59,986 nucleotides of DNA from a candidate division Kazan bacterium (GCA_003647645.1 QMNG01000003.1:1-59986); one strand, 5' to 3'. Shown: positions 18,421 through 56,770, counted from the stretch's first letter. Numbers and translations are program-made. Notes: generated by a model from the sequence alone, not told the origin.

Positions 18421-18526
18421 TGGATTCCCGCCTCTGCGGGAATGACAGCTTTTTTGTTGTCATCCTGAATTTAGTTCAGGATCCTTGGTAGGGCAGGCTA
18501 GATGCTGAAACAAGTTCAACATGACG
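18421..18526. repeat. REP-like composite (GGATTCCCGC..GCGGGAATGACA plus TGTCATCCTGAA..ATGACG)
   Basis: Palindromic units with TGTCA/ATGAC tags between two co-oriented genes. Confidence 0.75.
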
Positions 18527-24106: not shown

Positions 24107-25930
24107 GTGAGAAAGACAAAAACAGGTAAGCAGCACAGACAAAAATTCGGGGTATTGGCATTATACCTGATGGCCCTGTTGGCTTTGGCTGTATCCATAT
24201 CAGGATTGTTTACCAATGTACTGCCTGTACTCCACGATATAAATGTCTATATCTGGGCCAACGCCATCCACGAGCTAACGCTCAAAGGAATTTATTTCCC
24301 CCAATGGGTTCCACAGCTCTGGTATGGTTTTGGGCTTCCTGTTTTTTACTTCTACAATCCCCTCTATTATTTGGTGGTAGAATTTTTCCAAACATTAAAA
24401 CTGGGAACTGTTGCGTCCATTAATGCGGTCTCCATAGTCTCTGTGGTTATTGGAGGATATTCAATGTATTTGTGGGTCCGCGAGGTGGCTAGCAGGTCTT
24501 CTGCCATTGCGTCCGGGGCGCTCTTTATCTTGGCTCCCTATTTTCTGTCAATGATATACACCAGAGGCGCACTTGTAGAAATTTTTGCACTCTGTTTGGT
24601 TCCGCTATTAATGTGGGCGATCACAAAGTTCTGGAAAGAGCCGGGTGTCAAATATTGGAGCATCATGATAGCTGTGTTATCAACAATTTTCCTGACGCAT
24701 GTGCTAATAAGTGCAGTTGCTGTATTCATTGCCGTGACCTATGTTATTTTCCTGACTCTTCAAAAAAGAGGTACCACCGGTATCTTGACCCACACTTTGT
24801 ACGCCGGGCTAATATCGTCAGCTGTTACCGCTTTTTACTGGCTGCCGGCGGTTGTGAATATAAAACTGATAAATTTCCCAAATGTTTTAGAGGGAAGATT
24901 CTTCTATAATTCTAATTTTGTCCATCTCAGTGAGTTTCTTAATCTCCCCCTGATAAAAGAACACGGGTGGCTAACTTTAGGAATATTACCGCTGGTGGTT
25001 TTGGTGCTTGGATGGATAGCCCAAGGAGAGATCATGGACGAGATAAAAAGAAAATGGCTACTGTTTATGCTTTCTTTGGCTAGCATATTTGTGCTGCTGA
25101 CTCTTCCTATCTCTGACTTTTTGTGGACGATGGTACCGGGACTTGCGACTTTTCAATTTCCCTCTCGTTTTTTGGGGCCGGCAGTATTGCTGCTGGCCTT
25201 TGTGGCCGGCTTGCTGCTGGATCAGCTAATCCACAGCCAACAAGCTCGAATAATTATGTCTGCTGCAGCAATTGCGGTCGCCTGTCTTCTTGCGATTCCC
25301 TTTGTGCAGACGACGCCTTATTTTGAGTTTAATAACCTAGGAGAACAGGACCTGAATGTTACAAATTATATGAAACAAATATACGCAAGATTTGCCTATG
25401 CCCCTAAAATGGGCAAACGTTTTGACCGAGGAGTGGTTTCCTTTGAGTACCTGCCCCGCCGTATGTCGGAAGCAGAGGCCTCCAAGTTGATGTCGAATTC
25501 TTTTGAACGGCTTGTTGACGAAGAGGGCATACTTGGGGACTACATTCGGGTGGAGATGGAGTCCGGTGATGCCCAGATCACTACACAAATTGACGAACCG
25601 TATAATTCCAAATATTTGGTTAACGCCAACGAAGACAGCCGAATCCGAATAAATCAATTCGAATTTCCGGCTTGGCAGATCCGGCTGGATGGCAAATTAG
25701 TTGAAACAGAAATAATTTTTAATGAACCAGGCCAATTCCTGGACATTCCAGCCGGGAACCATGTCCTTGAAATAAAATTAACCACTTTGCCCATTGTATT
25801 TTGGTCGCGGGTCTTCTCTGGAATTGCGCTGTTGCTGACTGTTATGGGCCTGATTTGGTTCAAGCTGAGGAAAAATACTGCTAGAATTACAGGGTATGGC
25901 AAAGCAAACCAGAAAAAGAAAAGTAGATAA
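24107..25930 (+). CDS. PTPS-related / YfhO-like membrane glycosyltransferase (GT-C)
   Basis: W.PQLWYGFGLP.FYFYNPL, APYF....Y.RGA..E, FYWLPA, FQFPSRF, FPAWQI..DG, G.H.LE. Confidence 0.75.
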   Translation: MRKTKTGKQHRQKFGVLALYLMALLALAVSISGLFTNVLPVLHDINVYIWANAIHELTLKGIYFPQWVPQLWYGFGLPVFYFYNPLYYLVVEFFQTLKLGTVASINAVSIVSVVIGGYSMYLWVREVASRSSAIASGALFILAPYFLSMIYTRGALVEIFALCLVPLLMWAITKFWKEPGVKYWSIMIAVLSTIFLTHVLISAVAVFIAVTYVIFLTLQKRGTTGILTHTLYAGLISSAVTAFYWLPAVVNIKLINFPNVLEGRFFYNSNFVHLSEFLNLPLIKEHGWLTLGILPLVVLVLGWIAQGEIMDEIKRKWLLFMLSLASIFVLLTLPISDFLWTMVPGLATFQFPSRFLGPAVLLLAFVAGLLLDQLIHSQQARIIMSAAAIAVACLLAIPFVQTTPYFEFNNLGEQDLNVTNYMKQIYARFAYAPKMGKRFDRGVVSFEYLPRRMSEAEASKLMSNSFERLVDEEGILGDYIRVEMESGDAQITTQIDEPYNSKYLVNANEDSRIRINQFEFPAWQIRLDGKLVETEIIFNEPGQFLDIPAGNHVLEIKLTTLPIVFWSRVFSGIALLLTVMGLIWFKLRKNTARITGYGKANQKKKSR

Positions 25931-27653
25931 AAAAACGGATCTGGGTAAGATTCGGCATTCAGCCAGCCACATCCTGGCTGAAGCGGTTTTAAATTTGTAT
26001 CCGAATACTAAGCTAGGTTTCGGGCCAGCAACTGAAACCGGCTTTTACTATGATTTTGATTTCAAAAGCCCGATCACTGATAGCGATTTGGAAAAAATCG
26101 AATCAGAGATGCTAAAACTTATTAATGAAGGAAGAACTTTCAAAAAATCAGAGATGACGATCGCCAAAGCGCTGGCTTGGGCTAAACGGAACAAACAACC
26201 ATATAAGATAGAACTGATTGAGGGCCTGAAGCGAGATGGTCACAAACAGGTCACATTCTATAAAAGTGGCAGTTTTGTTGATTTATGTGAAGGGCCGCAC
26301 GTTAAATCAGCAAAGGACATCGGGGCAATTAAATTATTGAGTTTGGCTGGCGCCTACTGGCGCGGGGATGAAAGAAACCCGCAACTAACTCGCATCTATG
26401 GCACAGCTTTTGCCGCAAAAAAAGATTTGGATGAATATATTAAACTGCGCGAAGAGGCCAAAAAGCATGACCATCGCCTGATCGGCGAGAAGCTTGAACT
26501 CTTCTCATTCCACCCGGAAGGTCCCGGTTTTCCATTCTGGCATCCAAAGGGACAGCGACTTTTCTTGACTGTTTTGGAATACATGCGGGAGGTTTTACAC
26601 AAAAACGGCTATGGCGAGATAGCTACCCCGCCGATCCTCAATGTTGATTTGTGGCACAAATCCGGCCATTGGGACAACTATCAGAATAATATGTACTTCA
26701 CTGAAATAGATAAGCAGTCATATGCCATCAAACCGATGAACTGCCCGGGCGGAATGCTGATTTTCAACCATAAGCTCCATTCTTATCGGGACCTGCCAAT
26801 TCGAACGGCCGAATTTGGACTGGTTCACCGGCATGAACTGTCCGGCGTACTGCACGGATTATTCCGAGTGCGTTCGTTCACACAGGATGATGCCCATATC
26901 TTCTGCCTGCCGGAACAAATCAAAGATGAAATCAAGGCCCTTATTCGGATGCTACAGAACGTTTATAAAGATTTTGGATTTGAGGATTACCGCATTGAAC
27001 TGTCCACTCGTCCGCTGAAGTCCATCGGTTCTGATGCAATGTGGGAAAAATCCGAACAAATAATGCGGGAAGTTGCCAAAGAAGAAAAAATTAATATTGA
27101 AGTCAATGAAGGCGAAGGGGCTTTTTATGGCCCTAAATTCGATTTTCATGTTAACGATTGCCTAGGCAGGTCTTGGCAACTGGGTACTATCCAGCTGGAT
27201 TTCTCGATGCCGGAACGGCTTGGCGCCAAATACACGGACAAAGACGGAACCAGAAAGATACCAATTGTGATTCACCGCGCCATTTTAGGCAGTATAGAAA
27301 GATTCTTAGGTATTCTTATTGAACATTACGGCGGCATACTTCCCCTGTGGCTGGCGCCGGTGCAGGTCAAAATTCTGCCCATCAGTAATAAGCACAGCAA
27401 ATATGTGACTAAGATCGCCCAGGAATTAAAAACGGTTAATATCCGATTTGAGACGGATGACAGAAACGAATCGTTAGGCAAAAAAATTCGCGACGCCGAG
27501 CTGATGAAGATTCCTTATATGCTAATCATTGGTGATAAAGAGGCCAAAGTTAAAAGTGTAGCGGTCCGCCACATTAAGCAGGGCGATCTGAAAACAATGA
27601 AAATCAACTCCCTAATCCGCAAGTTAGGAGAAGAAATTGATTCAAAAAAATAG
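25896..27653 (+). CDS. thrS: Threonine--tRNA ligase
   Basis: RHSA.HILA.AV, DLC.GPHV, AGAYWRGD, DHR.IG, SGHWDNY, KPMNCPG, GL.RVR.FTQDDAHIFC, AFYGPK.DF, HRAI.GS.ERF. Confidence 0.98.
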   Translation: MAKQTRKRKVDKKTDLGKIRHSASHILAEAVLNLYPNTKLGFGPATETGFYYDFDFKSPITDSDLEKIESEMLKLINEGRTFKKSEMTIAKALAWAKRNKQPYKIELIEGLKRDGHKQVTFYKSGSFVDLCEGPHVKSAKDIGAIKLLSLAGAYWRGDERNPQLTRIYGTAFAAKKDLDEYIKLREEAKKHDHRLIGEKLELFSFHPEGPGFPFWHPKGQRLFLTVLEYMREVLHKNGYGEIATPPILNVDLWHKSGHWDNYQNNMYFTEIDKQSYAIKPMNCPGGMLIFNHKLHSYRDLPIRTAEFGLVHRHELSGVLHGLFRVRSFTQDDAHIFCLPEQIKDEIKALIRMLQNVYKDFGFEDYRIELSTRPLKSIGSDAMWEKSEQIMREVAKEEKINIEVNEGEGAFYGPKFDFHVNDCLGRSWQLGTIQLDFSMPERLGAKYTDKDGTRKIPIVIHRAILGSIERFLGILIEHYGGILPLWLAPVQVKILPISNKHSKYVTKIAQELKTVNIRFETDDRNESLGKKIRDAELMKIPYMLIIGDKEAKVKSVAVRHIKQGDLKTMKINSLIRKLGEEIDSKK

Positions 27654-27819
27654 AAGAGAGATTGCAACCAAGACCGATCGTCGAAGCCTCAAACGGCGCA
27701 AGGTTGCCCAATTTAAAACTGACAACCGCAGAAGTATCCGGCTAATTGCCAAACAAAGCGTACAAAGACGCAAATAGATTTAACTTCCTGTTATTGCGAG
27801 AGAAGACTACTCATTCTTC

Positions 27820-28317
27820 CTGTCATTGCGAGAAGTTCTGCTAAATAGCAGAACAACGAAGCAATCTATCTATGCAAAACCACAACTACTACATTTACAT
27901 TATGACCAATCACCGAAACAGCGTCTTATATACTGGCATCACTAACAATTTGATCAAACGCGTTTATGAGCATAAGCATAAGTTAGTTCCCGGTTTTACT
28001 GCTAAATATAATATTTGTAAATTAGCTTACTTCGAACAGACCGAAAATGTAGAATCGGCCATACTTCGTGAAAAACAGATTAAAGGTTGGCGACGAAGCA
28101 AAAAAGAAGTTTTAATTAATCTAATGAATCCCAAATGGCAAGATTTGTCCCAAGAGTGGAATATCCAAGAAACAGATTCCTCAACAGAACCCATGTCTCT
28201 CTGTCATTCTGAGCGGAGTGAAACGAAGCCGAAGAATCTTATCAAACAGATCCCTCGAGTACCTCGGGATGACAAAAGAGACACTCGGGATGACAAAAAA
28301 GACACTCGCAATGACAG
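27820..28317 (+). mobile_element. Putative GIY-YIG element bounded by perfect 13-bp inverted repeats
   Basis: CTGTCATTGCGAG (27820-27832) and CTCGCAATGACAG (28305-28317) enclose the nuclease core. Confidence 0.65.
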
Positions 28318-28330
28318 TGTAAATAAGTAG
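27872..28330 (+). CDS. GIY-YIG nuclease with a repeat-derived C-terminal tail
   Basis: YYIYIMTN..N.VLYTGITNNL.KRVYEHK, FT.KY...KL.YFE, AI.REKQIKGW.R.KK..LI...NP.W.DL; tail CHSERSE...PRDDKRDTRDD is translated repeat. Confidence 0.92.
   Translation: MQNHNYYIYIMTNHRNSVLYTGITNNLIKRVYEHKHKLVPGFTAKYNICKLAYFEQTENVESAILREKQIKGWRRSKKEVLINLMNPKWQDLSQEWNIQETDSSTEPMSLCHSERSETKPKNLIKQIPRVPRDDKRDTRDDKKDTRNDSVNK
28263..28317 (+). repeat. 21-bp tandem repeat (2.6 copies) of a REP end
   Basis: CTCGGGATGACAAAAGAGACA / CTCGGGATGACAAAAAAGACA / CTCGCAATGACAG. Confidence 0.9.
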
Positions 28331-29266
28331 TTGATGCGTAAAAATAAGAAACTAAAAATTGTAGCGGTGGTGGGACCGACGGCTTCTGGTAAGTCAACAC
28401 TGGCCGTTGAACTGGCAAAGCAGTTTAATGGAGTCATAATCTCTGCTGATTCCCGCCAAGTTTATCGCGGAATGGACATTGGTACCGCTAAAATCTCCAA
28501 AGATGAGATGGAGGGCATCTCCCACTATATGTTAGATGTGGCAGATCCGGATGATGACTTTAATGTAAGTCTATATCAAAAATCTGTAATGAATCTGCTT
28601 GAAGCCATAAAAAACAAAAATCGGAAAACCAACAGACCTGTCCTGCCCTTTATCGTCGGTGGCACTGGCCTATATGTCAGCGCCATCGTCGATGGTTTAA
28701 AATTTTCCGAGGTCAAACCGAATCTCAAATTGAGAGCCGATTTAAATAAAAAACCGCTGACCCAGTTGGCAATTAAGCTGAAAAAATTGGATCCCAACAC
28801 CACTACCGACTTAAAAAACAAGCGCCGAGTTATCCGAGCCATCGAGATATTAAAAGCCGGAAGCAAACCCTCCGGGCCAGAGGCCACTAAGGACCAGTGG
28901 CCGGCCAAAACTGAACCGAAGTTTGAAGTACTAAAGATCGGCGTTGGCAAAGACAGAAACATATCCAAAAAAAGAATTGAGAATCGGATATGGAATATGG
29001 ACATTCCGAAATTAATTAAAGAAACCAAAGCTCTAATTAAAAGGAAGTACGATTTTTCCAGCCCGGCCTTATCAGCTTTGGGCTACAACGATGTCAAAGA
29101 TTTTATCAACGATAAAATCACTGAACCGGAGCTAATTTATAGACTAATTAAGCTACACACCCAATACGCCAAGCGGCAGATGACCTGGTTTAAGAAGGAT
29201 AGATCTATTCACTGGGTAAAAGATGCCTCATCAGCCAAGAAACTAATCGCTAAGTGGTTGGAGTAG
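28331..29266 (+). CDS. miaA: tRNA dimethylallyltransferase
   Basis: VGPTASGKS, ISADSRQVYRGMDIGTAK, VGGTGLY, N.RRVIRAIE, YAKRQMTWF. Confidence 0.97.
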   Translation: MMRKNKKLKIVAVVGPTASGKSTLAVELAKQFNGVIISADSRQVYRGMDIGTAKISKDEMEGISHYMLDVADPDDDFNVSLYQKSVMNLLEAIKNKNRKTNRPVLPFIVGGTGLYVSAIVDGLKFSEVKPNLKLRADLNKKPLTQLAIKLKKLDPNTTTDLKNKRRVIRAIEILKAGSKPSGPEATKDQWPAKTEPKFEVLKIGVGKDRNISKKRIENRIWNMDIPKLIKETKALIKRKYDFSSPALSALGYNDVKDFINDKITEPELIYRLIKLHTQYAKRQMTWFKKDRSIHWVKDASSAKKLIAKWLE

Positions 29267-30456: not shown

Positions 30457-30542
30457 AATGTTGTTTTATCATTGCGAACGAAGCGAAGCAACCCCCTCGT
30501 ACACACCATTCCTCTCTGATTTATGATTCACAATTCGTGATT

Positions 30543-31277: not shown

Positions 31278-31291
31278 TGTGATTTTCTTTC

Positions 31292-31367
31292 TGGTCGGGG
31301 CGACTGGACTCGAACCAGCGATCTCCGCGTCCCAAACGCGGCGCCTTAGCCACTAGGCCACGCCCCG
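31292..31367 (-). tRNA. tRNA-Pro(TGG)
   Basis: CGGGGCG/CGCCCCG acceptor, CCGCG-TTTGGGA-CGCGG, GGTTCGAGTCC, CCA. Confidence 0.95.
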
Positions 31368-31601
31368 GCTAGTTAATTCTTTTAAATATCTATATCCAGC
31401 TCCTTGTTTAAAATATTTTTCTCGACTCATCGCTTCGGCTCCAGTTGGATATATCTCTTTGTGTACAATCTGCCATGGACCTTTATTTTTTGTACTAGCG
31501 ACTTTATTACTGTTATGTAGTGCAATACGATAGCTTAAATTGTTGGTTTGACCAACATAAGTTTTACCACCTTCATTAATTATTACATATAGATAATACA
31601 T
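31353..31601 (-). CDS. Small GIY-YIG nuclease (UPF0213-like), stop codon inside tRNA-Pro
   Basis: MYYLYVI.N..G.TYVGQTNNL..R...HN, ST...GPW..V..E, AM.REKYFK.G.G. Confidence 0.88.
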   Translation of the reverse strand: MYYLYVIINEGGKTYVGQTNNLSYRIALHNSNKVASTKNKGPWQIVHKEIYPTGAEAMSREKYFKQGAGYRYLKELTSRGVA

Positions 31602-40943: not shown

Positions 40944-41005
40944 TGTCATCCCGAGGTACTCGAGGGATCTGTTCTATAAGATTCTTCGACTGCGCTCAGA
41001 ATGAC
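40944..41005. repeat. TGTCAT...ATGACA REP-like doublet
   Basis: Reverse complement matches the element in the GIY-YIG tail (28201-28273), including AGATCCCTCGAGTACCTCGGGATGACA exactly. Confidence 0.9.
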
Positions 41006-47644: not shown

Positions 47645-47731
47645 TTGTCATTCTGAATTCATTTCAGAATCTAGCTTCCTGCCCAGAGGGCTTTAGCCCG
47701 GAGGGATCCTGAAACTAGTTCAGGATGACGG
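47645..47731. repeat. TGTCAT...ATGACG REP-like doublet containing GCCCGGAGGG
   Basis: TTGTCATTCTGAATTCATTTCAGAATC...GGATCCTGAAACTAGTTCAGGATGACGG. Confidence 0.8.
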
Positions 47732-48047: not shown

Positions 48048-48365
48048 CCTTGTCCTCGGGCTTGACCCGGGGATCCAGAAATAACAGTTTTTCGCTACCA
48101 TTTGAGTCGGCAAACGGTAGCACCAAACCGACCGCTGTGTTCGTCGGGTTTTTCATTGGCTAAATCCTCTTACCGCTTAAAGGGGTAAACTCGTTCATTC
48201 CTTCACTCAAACATACCCCACACGATAAGGATTTAACTCCCGCCTGCATCAGCTGTGCTTCAAGCACTGCGGGCAGGCAATTCAAGACAACCGACCTCCA
48301 ATGCGGGATTAAATGTAATCGGCCCATTCGCGGGCCGATTGGTTATTCTTGCCCGAAGCATAGTT

Positions 48366-51407: not shown

Positions 51408-51947
51408 GTGAATAAGAGGATACTTCTAGCCGTGGATCCAGCCTCCGGCCCGAAGGACCCCAAAGCCCGGAGGGAAGACCTAAAAAAGCTTCGCCAGAAA
51501 AGCGAGGTAGTTAAAGTTGTCGATAAAAATATCAAGCGTCTGGTTTCGGATATGTTCGATATTATGCATGCAGACAACGGAATCGGGCTGTCGGCTCCTC
51601 AGATCGGCGTGTCCAAGCGGGTAATTATCGGAGAATATGAAAGCACTAAGACTCCTGTTCCTCGCATGGTATTAATTAATCCCGAAATCACTTGGACATC
51701 AAAAAAAGAAACTGTGGACGAGGAGGGCTGTTTATCGTTTCCCAACTTGTACGGAATGGTCAAGAGACCTGAACGCATTCGCTATACTGCTATGAACGAA
51801 AACGGCAAAAAGATTGAGGGCAAAGCCACTGGTTTACAGGCTCGGGTTATCCAGCACGAAATAGACCATCTGGACGGGATTTTATTTATAGATAGGCTTG
51901 AGGGAAACCTATATACCTATGAGAAACAGGCAGAGAATGGAGAGTAA
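51408..51947 (+). CDS. def: Peptide deformylase with an N-terminal palindromic insertion
   Basis: GIGLSAPQIG, EGCLS.P, QHEIDHLDGILF; directly upstream of fmt. Confidence 0.96.
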   Translation: MNKRILLAVDPASGPKDPKARREDLKKLRQKSEVVKVVDKNIKRLVSDMFDIMHADNGIGLSAPQIGVSKRVIIGEYESTKTPVPRMVLINPEITWTSKKETVDEEGCLSFPNLYGMVKRPERIRYTAMNENGKKIEGKATGLQARVIQHEIDHLDGILFIDRLEGNLYTYEKQAENGE

Positions 51948-51988: not shown

Positions 51989-52068
51989 CTGTCATTGCGA
52001 GGAGGTCAAAGACCGACGAAGCAATCTCTTCTAAACACTCAGATTGCCACGCTACGCTCGCAATGACA
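51989..52068. repeat. CTGTCATTGCGAG...CTCGCAATGACA REP-like doublet (gene-less version of the GIY-YIG element)
   Basis: Same termini and internal ACGAAGCAATCT as 27820-28317, with only a short spacer. Confidence 0.88.
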
Positions 52069-52124: not shown

Positions 52125-53063
52125 ATGAATCCCCAAAGCTACAATGTGATATTCATGGGCACGCCGGAATTTGCTGTGCCATCACTGAAAGCATTGATCG
52201 CCAGTCCAGAATTCAATGTAAGAATGGTAATTACCCAGCCGGATAAACCAGCCGGGCGAGGCAACGAAGTTCAAAAAAGTCCGGTTACCGAAGTGGCTTT
52301 GACGGAAGGTCTGCCGATTTTGCAGCCAGAAACAGTTAAGCACAACCCCGAGTTGGTTAGAGCAATCAAAAGCATTGCGCCGGATGTGATTGTGGTGGCG
52401 GCCTATGGCAAGATTTTGCCTCAAGAGATCTTAGACATTCCGAAATTTGGAATAGTTAATGTCCATGCTTCCCTACTGCCCAAATACCGCGGAGCTTCAC
52501 CAATACCAGCGACAATAATCAACGGTGATGCCGAAACTGGCGTAACAATCATGAAAATGGAATTAGAAATGGATGCAGGCCCGATTATTGGCACCAGCAA
52601 GAAAATAACCATAGACCAAGATGACACCAGCGCGACATTAAGTAAAAAATTGGCTGAAATCGGCGCCGAATCATTGATGGAGCTGCTGCCAAAATACCTG
52701 AGCGGCGAAATTACACCGCAAAAACAAAACGAAGCCGAGGCCAGTTTTGTTAAACTCCTTGAAAAAGAAGACGGTAAAATTGACTGGAACGAATCTGAGG
52801 AGATTATCGCCCGCAAGGTACGAGCGTATAATCCGTGGCCGTCAGCTTTCACTATTTACAAAGGCGAACCACTCAAAATTTTAGAAACGGAATATCATCC
52901 TGAGATACAGAATGAATCAGGCAAAGTTAGCACTCAGAACAGCGACTTATATATAGGAAAATTGAAGATACTCAAACTGCAACCGGCCGGCAAAAAACCA
53001 ATGTCCGGGAGAGACTTTTTAGCTGGACATGCAGATATTGCAGATATAGATCTTAGAAGTTAA
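52125..53063 (+). CDS. fmt: Methionyl-tRNA formyltransferase
   Basis: FMGTPEFAVPSL, V.TQPDKP.GRG, VVAAYGKILP, NVHASLLPKYRGASPI, MDAG.I, VRAYNPWP.A. Confidence 0.97.
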   Translation: MNPQSYNVIFMGTPEFAVPSLKALIASPEFNVRMVITQPDKPAGRGNEVQKSPVTEVALTEGLPILQPETVKHNPELVRAIKSIAPDVIVVAAYGKILPQEILDIPKFGIVNVHASLLPKYRGASPIPATIINGDAETGVTIMKMELEMDAGPIIGTSKKITIDQDDTSATLSKKLAEIGAESLMELLPKYLSGEITPQKQNEAEASFVKLLEKEDGKIDWNESEEIIARKVRAYNPWPSAFTIYKGEPLKILETEYHPEIQNESGKVSTQNSDLYIGKLKILKLQPAGKKPMSGRDFLAGHADIADIDLRS

Positions 53064-55074: not shown

Positions 55075-55194
55075 TCATGTGGTCGTTCTACAAGCTATAG
55101 CAGGCTAGGTAGGCAATTGAGATCCTTCGACTTCGCTCAGGATGACAAGATTATTAATTGGATATTGGATATTGAATATTACGGCGCAACCGTT

Positions 55195-56514: not shown

Positions 56515-56770
56515 ACTATTAGTATCTAGTATTTAGTATTTGGTATCTAGTATCTGGTATCTAGTGTTTAGTATATATTAGATTCTGAACCAAGTTCAGA
56601 ATGACGGGTTGTGTATTTTATGTCTGGTCTCCGACTCTTGAGAGTCTCTGACTCGGAGAGATTCCCGACTCCGCTCTTCGACGAGCTCAAAATCCGCGGC
56701 GGGAATGACAATTAATAATAAATAGCCCCTTTTGGGCTATTTATCTATGGACGCATTGTATACTATCTAC

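Follow-up and report, generated by a model that had tools for sequence, protein, structure and literature searches.

A probable SRM-ssn-SRM cassette with a GIY-YIG nuclease gene at the thrS-miaA site of a candidate division Kazan genome

A gene for a small GIY-YIG nuclease lies between thrS and miaA in a candidate division Kazan genome and is enclosed by inverted hairpins that carry a GTCAT tag. The locus very probably represents an SRM-ssn-SRM cassette of the Ssn family, that is, a GIY-YIG gene bracketed by inverted GTCAT-tagged hairpins of the kind that this family recognises. By analogy with characterised relatives, we are highly confident that the protein is an Ssn-type nuclease with single-stranded GTCAT-tagged hairpins as substrates. 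The architecture of the locus, the statistical association of nuclease and repeats, the co-variation of their subtypes and the presence or absence of the cassette at an orthologous site are observed here.

The pairing of Ssn nucleases with NTS/SRM repeats was described by Chenal et al. (2025, Nat Commun 16:2388; PMC11893778). The Neisseria NTS is CGTCATTCCCGCGMAVGCGGGAATCYRG, and a degenerate 'SRM' motif was also defined (PMC11893778). The gene most often flanked by these repeats, ssnA, encodes a 94-aa single-domain GIY-YIG protein (CDD cd10448), and 71% of Ssn homologues have at least one SRM nearby, 42% having SRMs on both sides (PMC11893778). In vitro, SsnA recognises the hairpin solely in single-stranded DNA, which it cuts a few nucleotides upstream of the CGTCAT tag; binding and cutting of single-stranded hairpins have been published for four homologues (PMC11893778). 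Cleavage depends most on the three bases that precede the stem, and binding on the C that follows it (PMC11893778). Earlier, Di Nocera et al. (2013, PMC3733652) had noted CGTC-tagged palindromes without a dedicated transposase. A sequence-only reading of the present DNA started from the same premise, that CGTC/TGTC repeats have no dedicated partner. This premise is outdated, as the partner is Ssn (PMC11893778). The nuclease-repeat pairing seen here is real but already published as the Ssn/SRM system.

The nuclease gene and its hairpin units

The window (the whole stretch of 59,986 nucleotides that was analysed) is contig C3 of a 1.14-Mb assembly with 43% GC and 138 contigs. Its ORF at 27872-28330 (+) is located between thrS (25896-27653) and miaA (28331-29266). 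A Pfam profile search identified GIY-YIG (PF01541, E=4.6e-14, residues 5-78) as its sole domain; a second domain is absent. The first 96 residues form a core that can be aligned end to end with single-domain homologues of 93-102 aa, typically ~95 aa, and that shares 60-79% identity with them across more than 15 phyla. In an alignment of 33 sequences, all 25 invariant columns are kept in the core. The catalytic-type residues Y9, Y20 and E67 are invariant in this alignment, and their spacing (11 and 47) equals that of Y6, Y17 and E64 in N. meningitidis SsnA, a match of spacing only. The NCBIfam model grpIintron_endo gave the ORF 19.3 bits against a cut-off of 56, so that the protein is not a group I intron endonuclease. 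A PDB sequence search with the nuclease matched only a distant UPF0213 protein (1zg2, E=0.0026) and returned no Ssn structure. Relatives of the nuclease number more than 4,400. The best 120 of these are 62-79% identical to it, and their named sources include Cyanobacteria, Chloroflexi, Elusimicrobiota and Deltaproteobacteria, among others. The features of the locus are as follows.

27637-27777 (+): small conserved basic ORF of 46 aa (...TDNRRSIRLIAKQ...), the gene that actually adjoins the cassette on the left and bounds the insertion site on that side
27788-27800 (+): degenerate additional left outer end (CTGTTATTGCGAG), with 1 mismatch to TGTCATTGCGAG
27820-27867 (+): left SRM-like hairpin unit of the GCGAG subtype, CTGTCATTGCGAG - inner hairpin - ACGAAGCAATCT
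27872-28159 (+): Ssn-type GIY-YIG nuclease core, 96 aa, assigned from Pfam PF01541 and the homologue alignment
28160-28330 (+): repeat-derived C-terminal read-through tail, ~55 codons; homologues stop near residue 96
28201-28238 (+): nested SRM-like unit of the CTGAG subtype (CTGTCATTCTGAG...GAAGAATCT)
28247-28274 (-): nested SRM-like unit of the CCCGAG subtype (AGATCCCTCGAGTACCTCGGGATGACA), with an identical unit at 40945-40969
28263-28317 (-): 21-nt tandem array of partial right ends (CTCGGGATGACA twice, then CTCGCAATGACAG)

As stated in the sequence-only reading, the nuclease core is contained within a perfect 13-bp inverted repeat, formed by CTGTCATTGCGAG (27820-27832) and CTCGCAATGACAG (28305-28317). 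These two arms are the outer ends of GTCAT-tagged hairpin units. The left unit, which can be written GTCATTGCGAG - inner hairpin - CGAAGCAATC, ends 4 nt upstream of the ATG; as DNA, region 27819-27869 folds at -9.5 kcal/mol (z=-3.8). Exact copies of TGTCATTGCGAG are found in the window only at 27821 (+), 28305 (-), 51990 (+) and 52057 (-), and exact copies of ACGAAGCAATCT only at 27856 and 52016. When up to 2 mismatches are allowed, TGTCATTGCGAG has 13 matches in the window compared with 4.45 expected, a number reached in 0 of 100 shuffles. The same reading had proposed that the ends of the cassette recur at 51989-52068 around a mere spacer, and the exact TGTCATTGCGAG and ACGAAGCAATCT matches bear this out.

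On the right side, the two nested units form a doublet (28201-28274), which a structural scan recovers as 28203-28238 (+) and 28249-28273 (-), and the tandem array finishes with CTCGCAATGACAG, which supplies the right arm of the 13-bp inverted repeat. A near relative (L111) has a cassette whose nuclease is 79% identical to that of the window and which has the same GCGAG ends. There, the right unit is intact and contains the stop codon of the nuclease. Compared with it, the window cassette has lost the stop codon and the inner arm of the right unit and has gained the nested doublet and the 21-nt array. Lacking its normal stop, the ORF continues from ~28160 for another ~55 codons through repeat units. 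This tail is probably incidental. The full 152-aa product is encoded on 4 contigs from independent assemblies, and many of the best 120 relatives carry N- or C-terminal extensions that are visibly translated repeats (...CHAERSEAS..., ...IPRQARNDK...). In view of its incomplete right unit and its tail, this copy of the cassette could be decaying.

Tandem arrays of partial ends, with the tag and one stem arm every 17-21 nt, are also seen beside many cassettes from different phyla, for example in the flanks at four homologue loci (L002, L020, L028 and L037) in addition to 28263-28317 here. Their appearance suggests scars left by slippage or by repeated rounds of cutting and repair.

Dispersed units and nuclease paralogues in the host genome

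All units share a common plan: a (T/C)GTC tag, a stem beginning with AT, a loop or inner hairpin, the complementary stem ending with AT, and a C. In the whole genome, (T/C)GTCAT is the most frequent hexamer context at perfect hairpins. A permissive hairpin scan allowing G-U pairs and long loops was passed by ~18% of all positions and was replaced by stricter scans. Units were then defined as GTCAY followed by a 5-nt arm, the complementary arm and a C. The genome contains 81 such GTCAY units, compared with 25-48 in ten random sequences (first-order Markov sequences with the dinucleotide transition frequencies of the genome). Roughly 40-45 copies are therefore real, which is a modest repeat load, and the excess over random agrees with the dispersed family posited by the sequence-only reading. 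Counting of 11-mers recovered a CRISPR repeat and A-rich words and missed the GTCAT-tagged repeats, because their stems are too varied. Besides those of the cassette, the window contains the following units.

18423-18446 (-) and 18459-18483 (+): pair made of an NTS-type unit (GTCATTCCCGCAGAGGCGGGAATC) and a CTGAA-type unit
30467-30492: degenerate copy (TATCATTGCGAA...)
40945-40969 (+) and 40980-41005 (-): doublet of a CCCGAG-type and a CTGAG-type unit
47647-47671 (+) and 47705-47729 (-): doublet of CTGAA-type units
48052-48075 (+): single GTCC-subtype unit (GTCCTCGGGCTTGACCCGGGGATC); units of this subtype flank the nuclease paralogue at C2:114658
51989-52068: intergenic gene-less doublet of the GCGAG subtype, left unit, 13-nt spacer and right unit
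55121-55146 (-): single CTGAG-type unit
56581-56605 (-) and 56660-56709 (-): CTGAA-type unit, followed by an NTS-like unit with a long insert

The sites listed as related units in the sequence-only reading are thus recovered, with two qualifications: the copy at 30467-30492 is degenerate, and the unit at 48052-48075 is of a different subtype. The gene-less doublet at 51989-52068 sits between ORFs 51408-51947 and 52125-53063. Its 80 nt form one long DNA palindrome (fold -19.7 kcal/mol, z=-6.2). Genome-wide, units of the GCGAG subtype make up the cassette, gene-less doublets at three sites (C2:123615-123689, C3:51991-52067 and C14:35-129) and one single unit.

The commonest local type is GTCATYCTGAA-N5-TTCAGRATC. 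NTS-type copies contain the dRS3 core ATTCCC-N8-GGGAAT, and the exact published NTS consensus is present once (CGTCATTCCCGCGCAGGCGGGAATCCAG, contig C2), along with T-tagged near-matches. The published SRM motif, HGTCWYN(0-2)YYVSBRHN(0-5)WNVSBRGN(0-2)RNCYNB, gave 7 matches in the genome compared with 0-7 in random sequences, and none at the cassette. It is not enriched because only NTS-type copies are caught, and the chance-level count means that the local subtypes are variants outside the published definition. The GCGAG, CTGAA, CCCGAG and GTCC subtypes all escape the motif, yet they keep the tag, the stem and the trailing ATC. The SRM motif is a search tool and not a definition of the family. 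Since it misses whole subtypes, surveys based on it undercount the repeats.

Eight GIY-YIG matches were found in the genome: UvrC, four matches from a second small subfamily (two of which look like halves of one split gene) and three Ssn-type proteins. The three Ssn-type genes (C3:27872, C2:114658 and C2:125569) are all bracketed by inverted hairpin units, each of a different subtype (GCGAG, GTCCTCGGGCTTGACCCGGGGA and GTCATYCTGAA...TTCAGRATC). Of the 826 long ORFs in the genome, just 3 have units at both ends at a distance of no more than 150 nt.

Matches from the second small GIY-YIG subfamily are located at 31404-31601 (-) in the window and at C30:6436-6600, C6:17432-17644 and C6:35901-36071. 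Three of these four matches directly adjoin a tRNA or tmRNA gene, and the subfamily has no flanking GTCAT units. The ORF in the window runs into a tRNA gene at ~31290-31370. The match at C6:35901-36071 is at the end of the contig and looks like the other half of the GIY-YIG gene on C30.

Some further observations concern the assembly. The two contigs that carry Ssn genes, C2 (17 units) and C3 (16), hold 33 of the 81 GTCAY units, and the largest contig, C1 (139 kb), holds only 5; this concentration could reflect local spread or uneven assembly. A CRISPR-like repeat, GTTTAAAGAGAACTATGTAGTATGGTGAC, is present in ~41 copies. The relatives, which fall in one family and order, have genomes of 0.4-0.8 Mb, and the nearest sequence records are labelled Patescibacteria. 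With 1.14 Mb, the assembly is about twice as large as the other genomes of its family (0.4-0.7 Mb). In the hairpin listing, several of the small contigs look rich in GC, and some may be foreign to the bin.

Nuclease and repeats in homologues and at the thrS-miaA site

Eighty homologue loci from more than 15 phyla were collected, in which 78 genes were scored; control ORFs were crude ORF calls from the same loci. GTCAT and ATGAC words peak within ~250 nt of the nuclease gene and fall to background beyond ~400 nt. A unit lies within 150 nt of 75 of the 78 homologues, compared with 58 of 419 control ORFs (Fisher p ~1e-48). Units on both sides are found for 56 of the 78 (72%), compared with 3 of 419 controls (0.7%; Fisher p ~1e-52). 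Start-side units are oriented + and stop-side units -, so that the tagged ends point outward. The sequence-only reading had asked whether homologues are flanked by such repeats above chance, and they clearly are.

Repeat subtypes follow the nucleases. Upstream and downstream units are of the same subtype in 23 of 52 loci, compared with 7.8 after shuffling. On a nuclease tree built from 95 columns and weakly resolved, subtypes are clustered, with 19 changes compared with a shuffled mean of 33.2, and none of 200 shuffles gave a value as low; the GCGAG type requires 5 changes compared with 13.1. The expectation that repeat subtype tracks nuclease phylogeny is therefore supported. Among 41 relatives, nuclease and repeats are mostly present together or absent together. 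Of the 24 genomes with an Ssn match at E<1e-25, 18 contain CTGAA-type units, compared with 2 of the 17 others, in a tally that ignores shared ancestry. Three genomes (G005, G010 and G012) have neither nuclease nor repeats; G010 and G012 belong to one genus, and its other members have both. An exception is a complete 0.6-Mb genome (G007) with 20 CTGAA-type units, many in doublets, but no strong Ssn-type gene (best match E=1.6e-10). Its repeats may be orphans that outlasted a lost nuclease. Together, flanks, co-occurrence and subtype tracking strongly support the earlier proposal of this small GIY-YIG family as the dedicated partner of TGTC/CGTC hairpins.

The small basic ORF at 27637-27777 has homologues (..TDNRKS[IV]QLI..) between thrS and miaA in six relatives (L082, L096, L100, L091, L088 and L094), and the order thrS, small ORF, miaA is conserved in the family and order. 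This ORF is a real, unnamed small gene kept across both.

The cassette is present or absent as one unit at this site. In three relatives, including the closest one (L082, with L096 and L100), the spacer is empty and only 7-30 nt long, and two others (L091 and L098) also have no cassette there. An empty version of the site, which the sequence-only reading had suggested looking for in relatives, is therefore found, including in the closest of them. The site is occupied in the window and L111, in L088 (CTGAG type) and in L086 and L094 (NTS type), so that its occupants carry three different repeat subtypes. In the nuclease tree, the genes of these occupants fall in different parts. An AU test did not reject a single clade, hence a single origin, for them (p=0.19). 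Insertion and loss therefore both fit the pattern, and no case is made here for independent insertions. Metagenome contigs were scanned twice with exact patterns for an empty site within the species; no match was obtained, not even to the left flank by itself, so that these scans do not bear on the matter.

The homologue cassettes showed no consistent target-site duplication, only sporadic flanking direct repeats of inconsistent lengths. At one locus (L005, 5900-6400), a ~41-nt segment from the 3' end of the upstream gene is duplicated, with 1 mismatch, so as to bracket the cassette. At another (L079, 5920-6400), a 12-nt direct repeat is found, and a composite of right unit, 12 nt and left unit recurs to either side of the gene and resembles a junction from a tandem or circular form.

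Possible function and comparison with related systems

By analogy with the Neisseria and Wolbachia enzymes, the protein would bind its hairpins only when the DNA is single-stranded, a state that may arise while DNA is replicated or repaired or when transforming DNA is taken up. Recognition would depend on the (C/T)GTC tag and on the C that follows the stem, and the nick would lie a few nucleotides 5' to the tag. Since the left GTCAT is on the top strand and the right one on the bottom strand, the predicted nicks are just outside both ends, one per strand. The genome holds three nuclease/repeat pairs of this kind, with a separate repeat subtype for each, and the nuclease activity may let the cassette and the doublets spread or persist.

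The locus resembles the published Ssn/SRM system in many respects: a ~95-aa single-domain GIY-YIG protein, (C/T)GTCAT-tagged hairpins with ...ATC after the stem, an inverted repeat-gene-repeat arrangement, dispersed gene-less copies, nuclease-specific subtypes, a wide phylogenetic spread and an exact copy of the NTS consensus in the host genome. It differs in that neither the units that flank the gene, of GCGAG type with a variable inner hairpin, nor those of the most frequent local type fit the SRM motif. In addition, three paralogous pairs are present in a host genome that is small and of Patescibacteria type, and the window copy has a tail and a truncated right unit. The palindromes of Di Nocera et al. 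(PMC3733652) and the Neisseria dRS3 belong to the same class, with a CGTC tag at one end; they were described without an associated enzyme, whereas here and in PMC11893778 the enzyme is an Ssn nuclease. With REP/REPIN-RAYT systems, the locus shares a small nuclease gene flanked by its own tagged hairpins, dispersed intergenic inverted doublets, recognition of a single-stranded hairpin and repeat types specific to a nuclease clade. However, RAYTs are HUH Y1 transposases (IS200/IS605) that act through a covalent tyrosine intermediate, whereas a GIY-YIG protein acts by hydrolysis. RAYT repeats are tagged GTAG rather than TGTC/CGTC, though doublets exist in both. RAYT genes are single vertically inherited copies, whereas Ssn-type genes are patchy, with several paralogues per genome. 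I-TevI-type homing endonucleases also have a GIY-YIG domain and a selfish-element-like insertion between conserved genes. In contrast to the window nuclease, they have a C-terminal DNA-binding domain, an intron or phage context and one cognate allele; published Ssn relatives cut single-stranded DNA only, and their targets are dispersed hairpins.

Could the arrangement be fortuitous, with ordinary terminator-like hairpins and a gene that merely lies in a repeat-rich spacer? The units are intergenic and fold as hairpins, as this explanation would have it. Nevertheless, we give it almost no credence, as both-side flanking concerns 72% of homologues but 0.7% of controls, and all three paralogues but 3 of 826 ORFs, and as unit density is at background beyond ~400 nt from the gene. 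The genome-wide ORF control and the homologue flank test refute it. Another alternative, suggested by the sequence-only reading, is that the nuclease is a RAYT-like mobiliser and the cassette an autonomous element that moves or copies itself and also gene-less, REPIN-like doublets. This hypothesis was already raised in PMC11893778, where Ssn was compared with the REP-/BIME-associated transposases of the IS200/IS605 family. We regard it as a serious possibility, at somewhat less than even chances. It agrees with the one gene-bearing copy and three gene-less doublets that have the same GCGAG ends and the same left/right asymmetry, and with the occupied thrS-miaA site in some relatives and its clean 7-30 nt counterpart in L082, L096 and L100. 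The three repeat subtypes among occupants of that single site, the co-variation of subtype with nuclease clade, and the joint absence of nuclease and repeats from G005, and from G010 and G012 within an otherwise positive genus, point in the same direction. So do the 60-70% identity of homologues across more than 15 phyla, with many of them on very short contigs, and the occasional flanking direct repeats (12 nt in L079, ~41 nt in L005). On the other hand, transposition or homing has been reported for no Ssn. GIY-YIG enzymes only hydrolyse DNA, with neither covalent intermediate nor strand transfer, and mobility would therefore need host repair or replication. Moreover, the predicted nicks are on opposite strands, whereas IS200/IS605 cuts the same strand. 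Flanking duplications are mostly absent and inconsistent in length, copy number is low (~40-45 units in 1.1 Mb), and a single ancient origin at thrS-miaA fits the AU test (p=0.19), with loss instead of gain.

Alternatively, the nuclease may serve the host by cutting incoming or exposed repeat-bearing single-stranded DNA, the repeats that flank its gene being regulatory or a historical relic. We consider this a real possibility, though less likely than not. SsnA reduces the integration of NTS-flanked transforming DNA: in N. meningitidis transformation, an NTS-gene-NTS donor integrates less efficiently when SsnA is active (PMC11893778). The positional copies at thrS-miaA could be one clade, which fits long-term vertical retention, and multiple paralogues are kept with all conserved residues intact. 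A host-serving role alone, however, leaves unexplained the gene-less doublets with cassette ends, the diversity of subtypes at one site and the patchy joint presence and absence. The mobile and host-serving roles are compatible with each other and with the assignment of the locus to the Ssn family. A broader proposal would be that SRM-ssn-SRM cassettes are autonomous mobile elements across phyla, with gene-less doublets as non-autonomous derivatives. They would spread by a hydrolytic nick and host repair, unlike any known transposase, and thrS-miaA would be a recurrent landing site of at least three nuclease/repeat lineages. We put it forward tentatively and hold it to be less likely than not.

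Reading of the sequence alone sufficed to detect a recently published Ssn/repeat system. What this locus adds are repeat subtypes that escape the SRM motif, one gene-bearing and three gene-less GCGAG copies, and presence and absence at an orthologous site. It offers a compact case, with three nuclease/repeat pairs in a 1.1-Mb genome and relatives that have empty and occupied versions of one spacer. This material could bear on the question raised in PMC11893778, whether Ssn proteins are mere cutters of single-stranded DNA or the engine that spreads CGTC-tagged palindromes.
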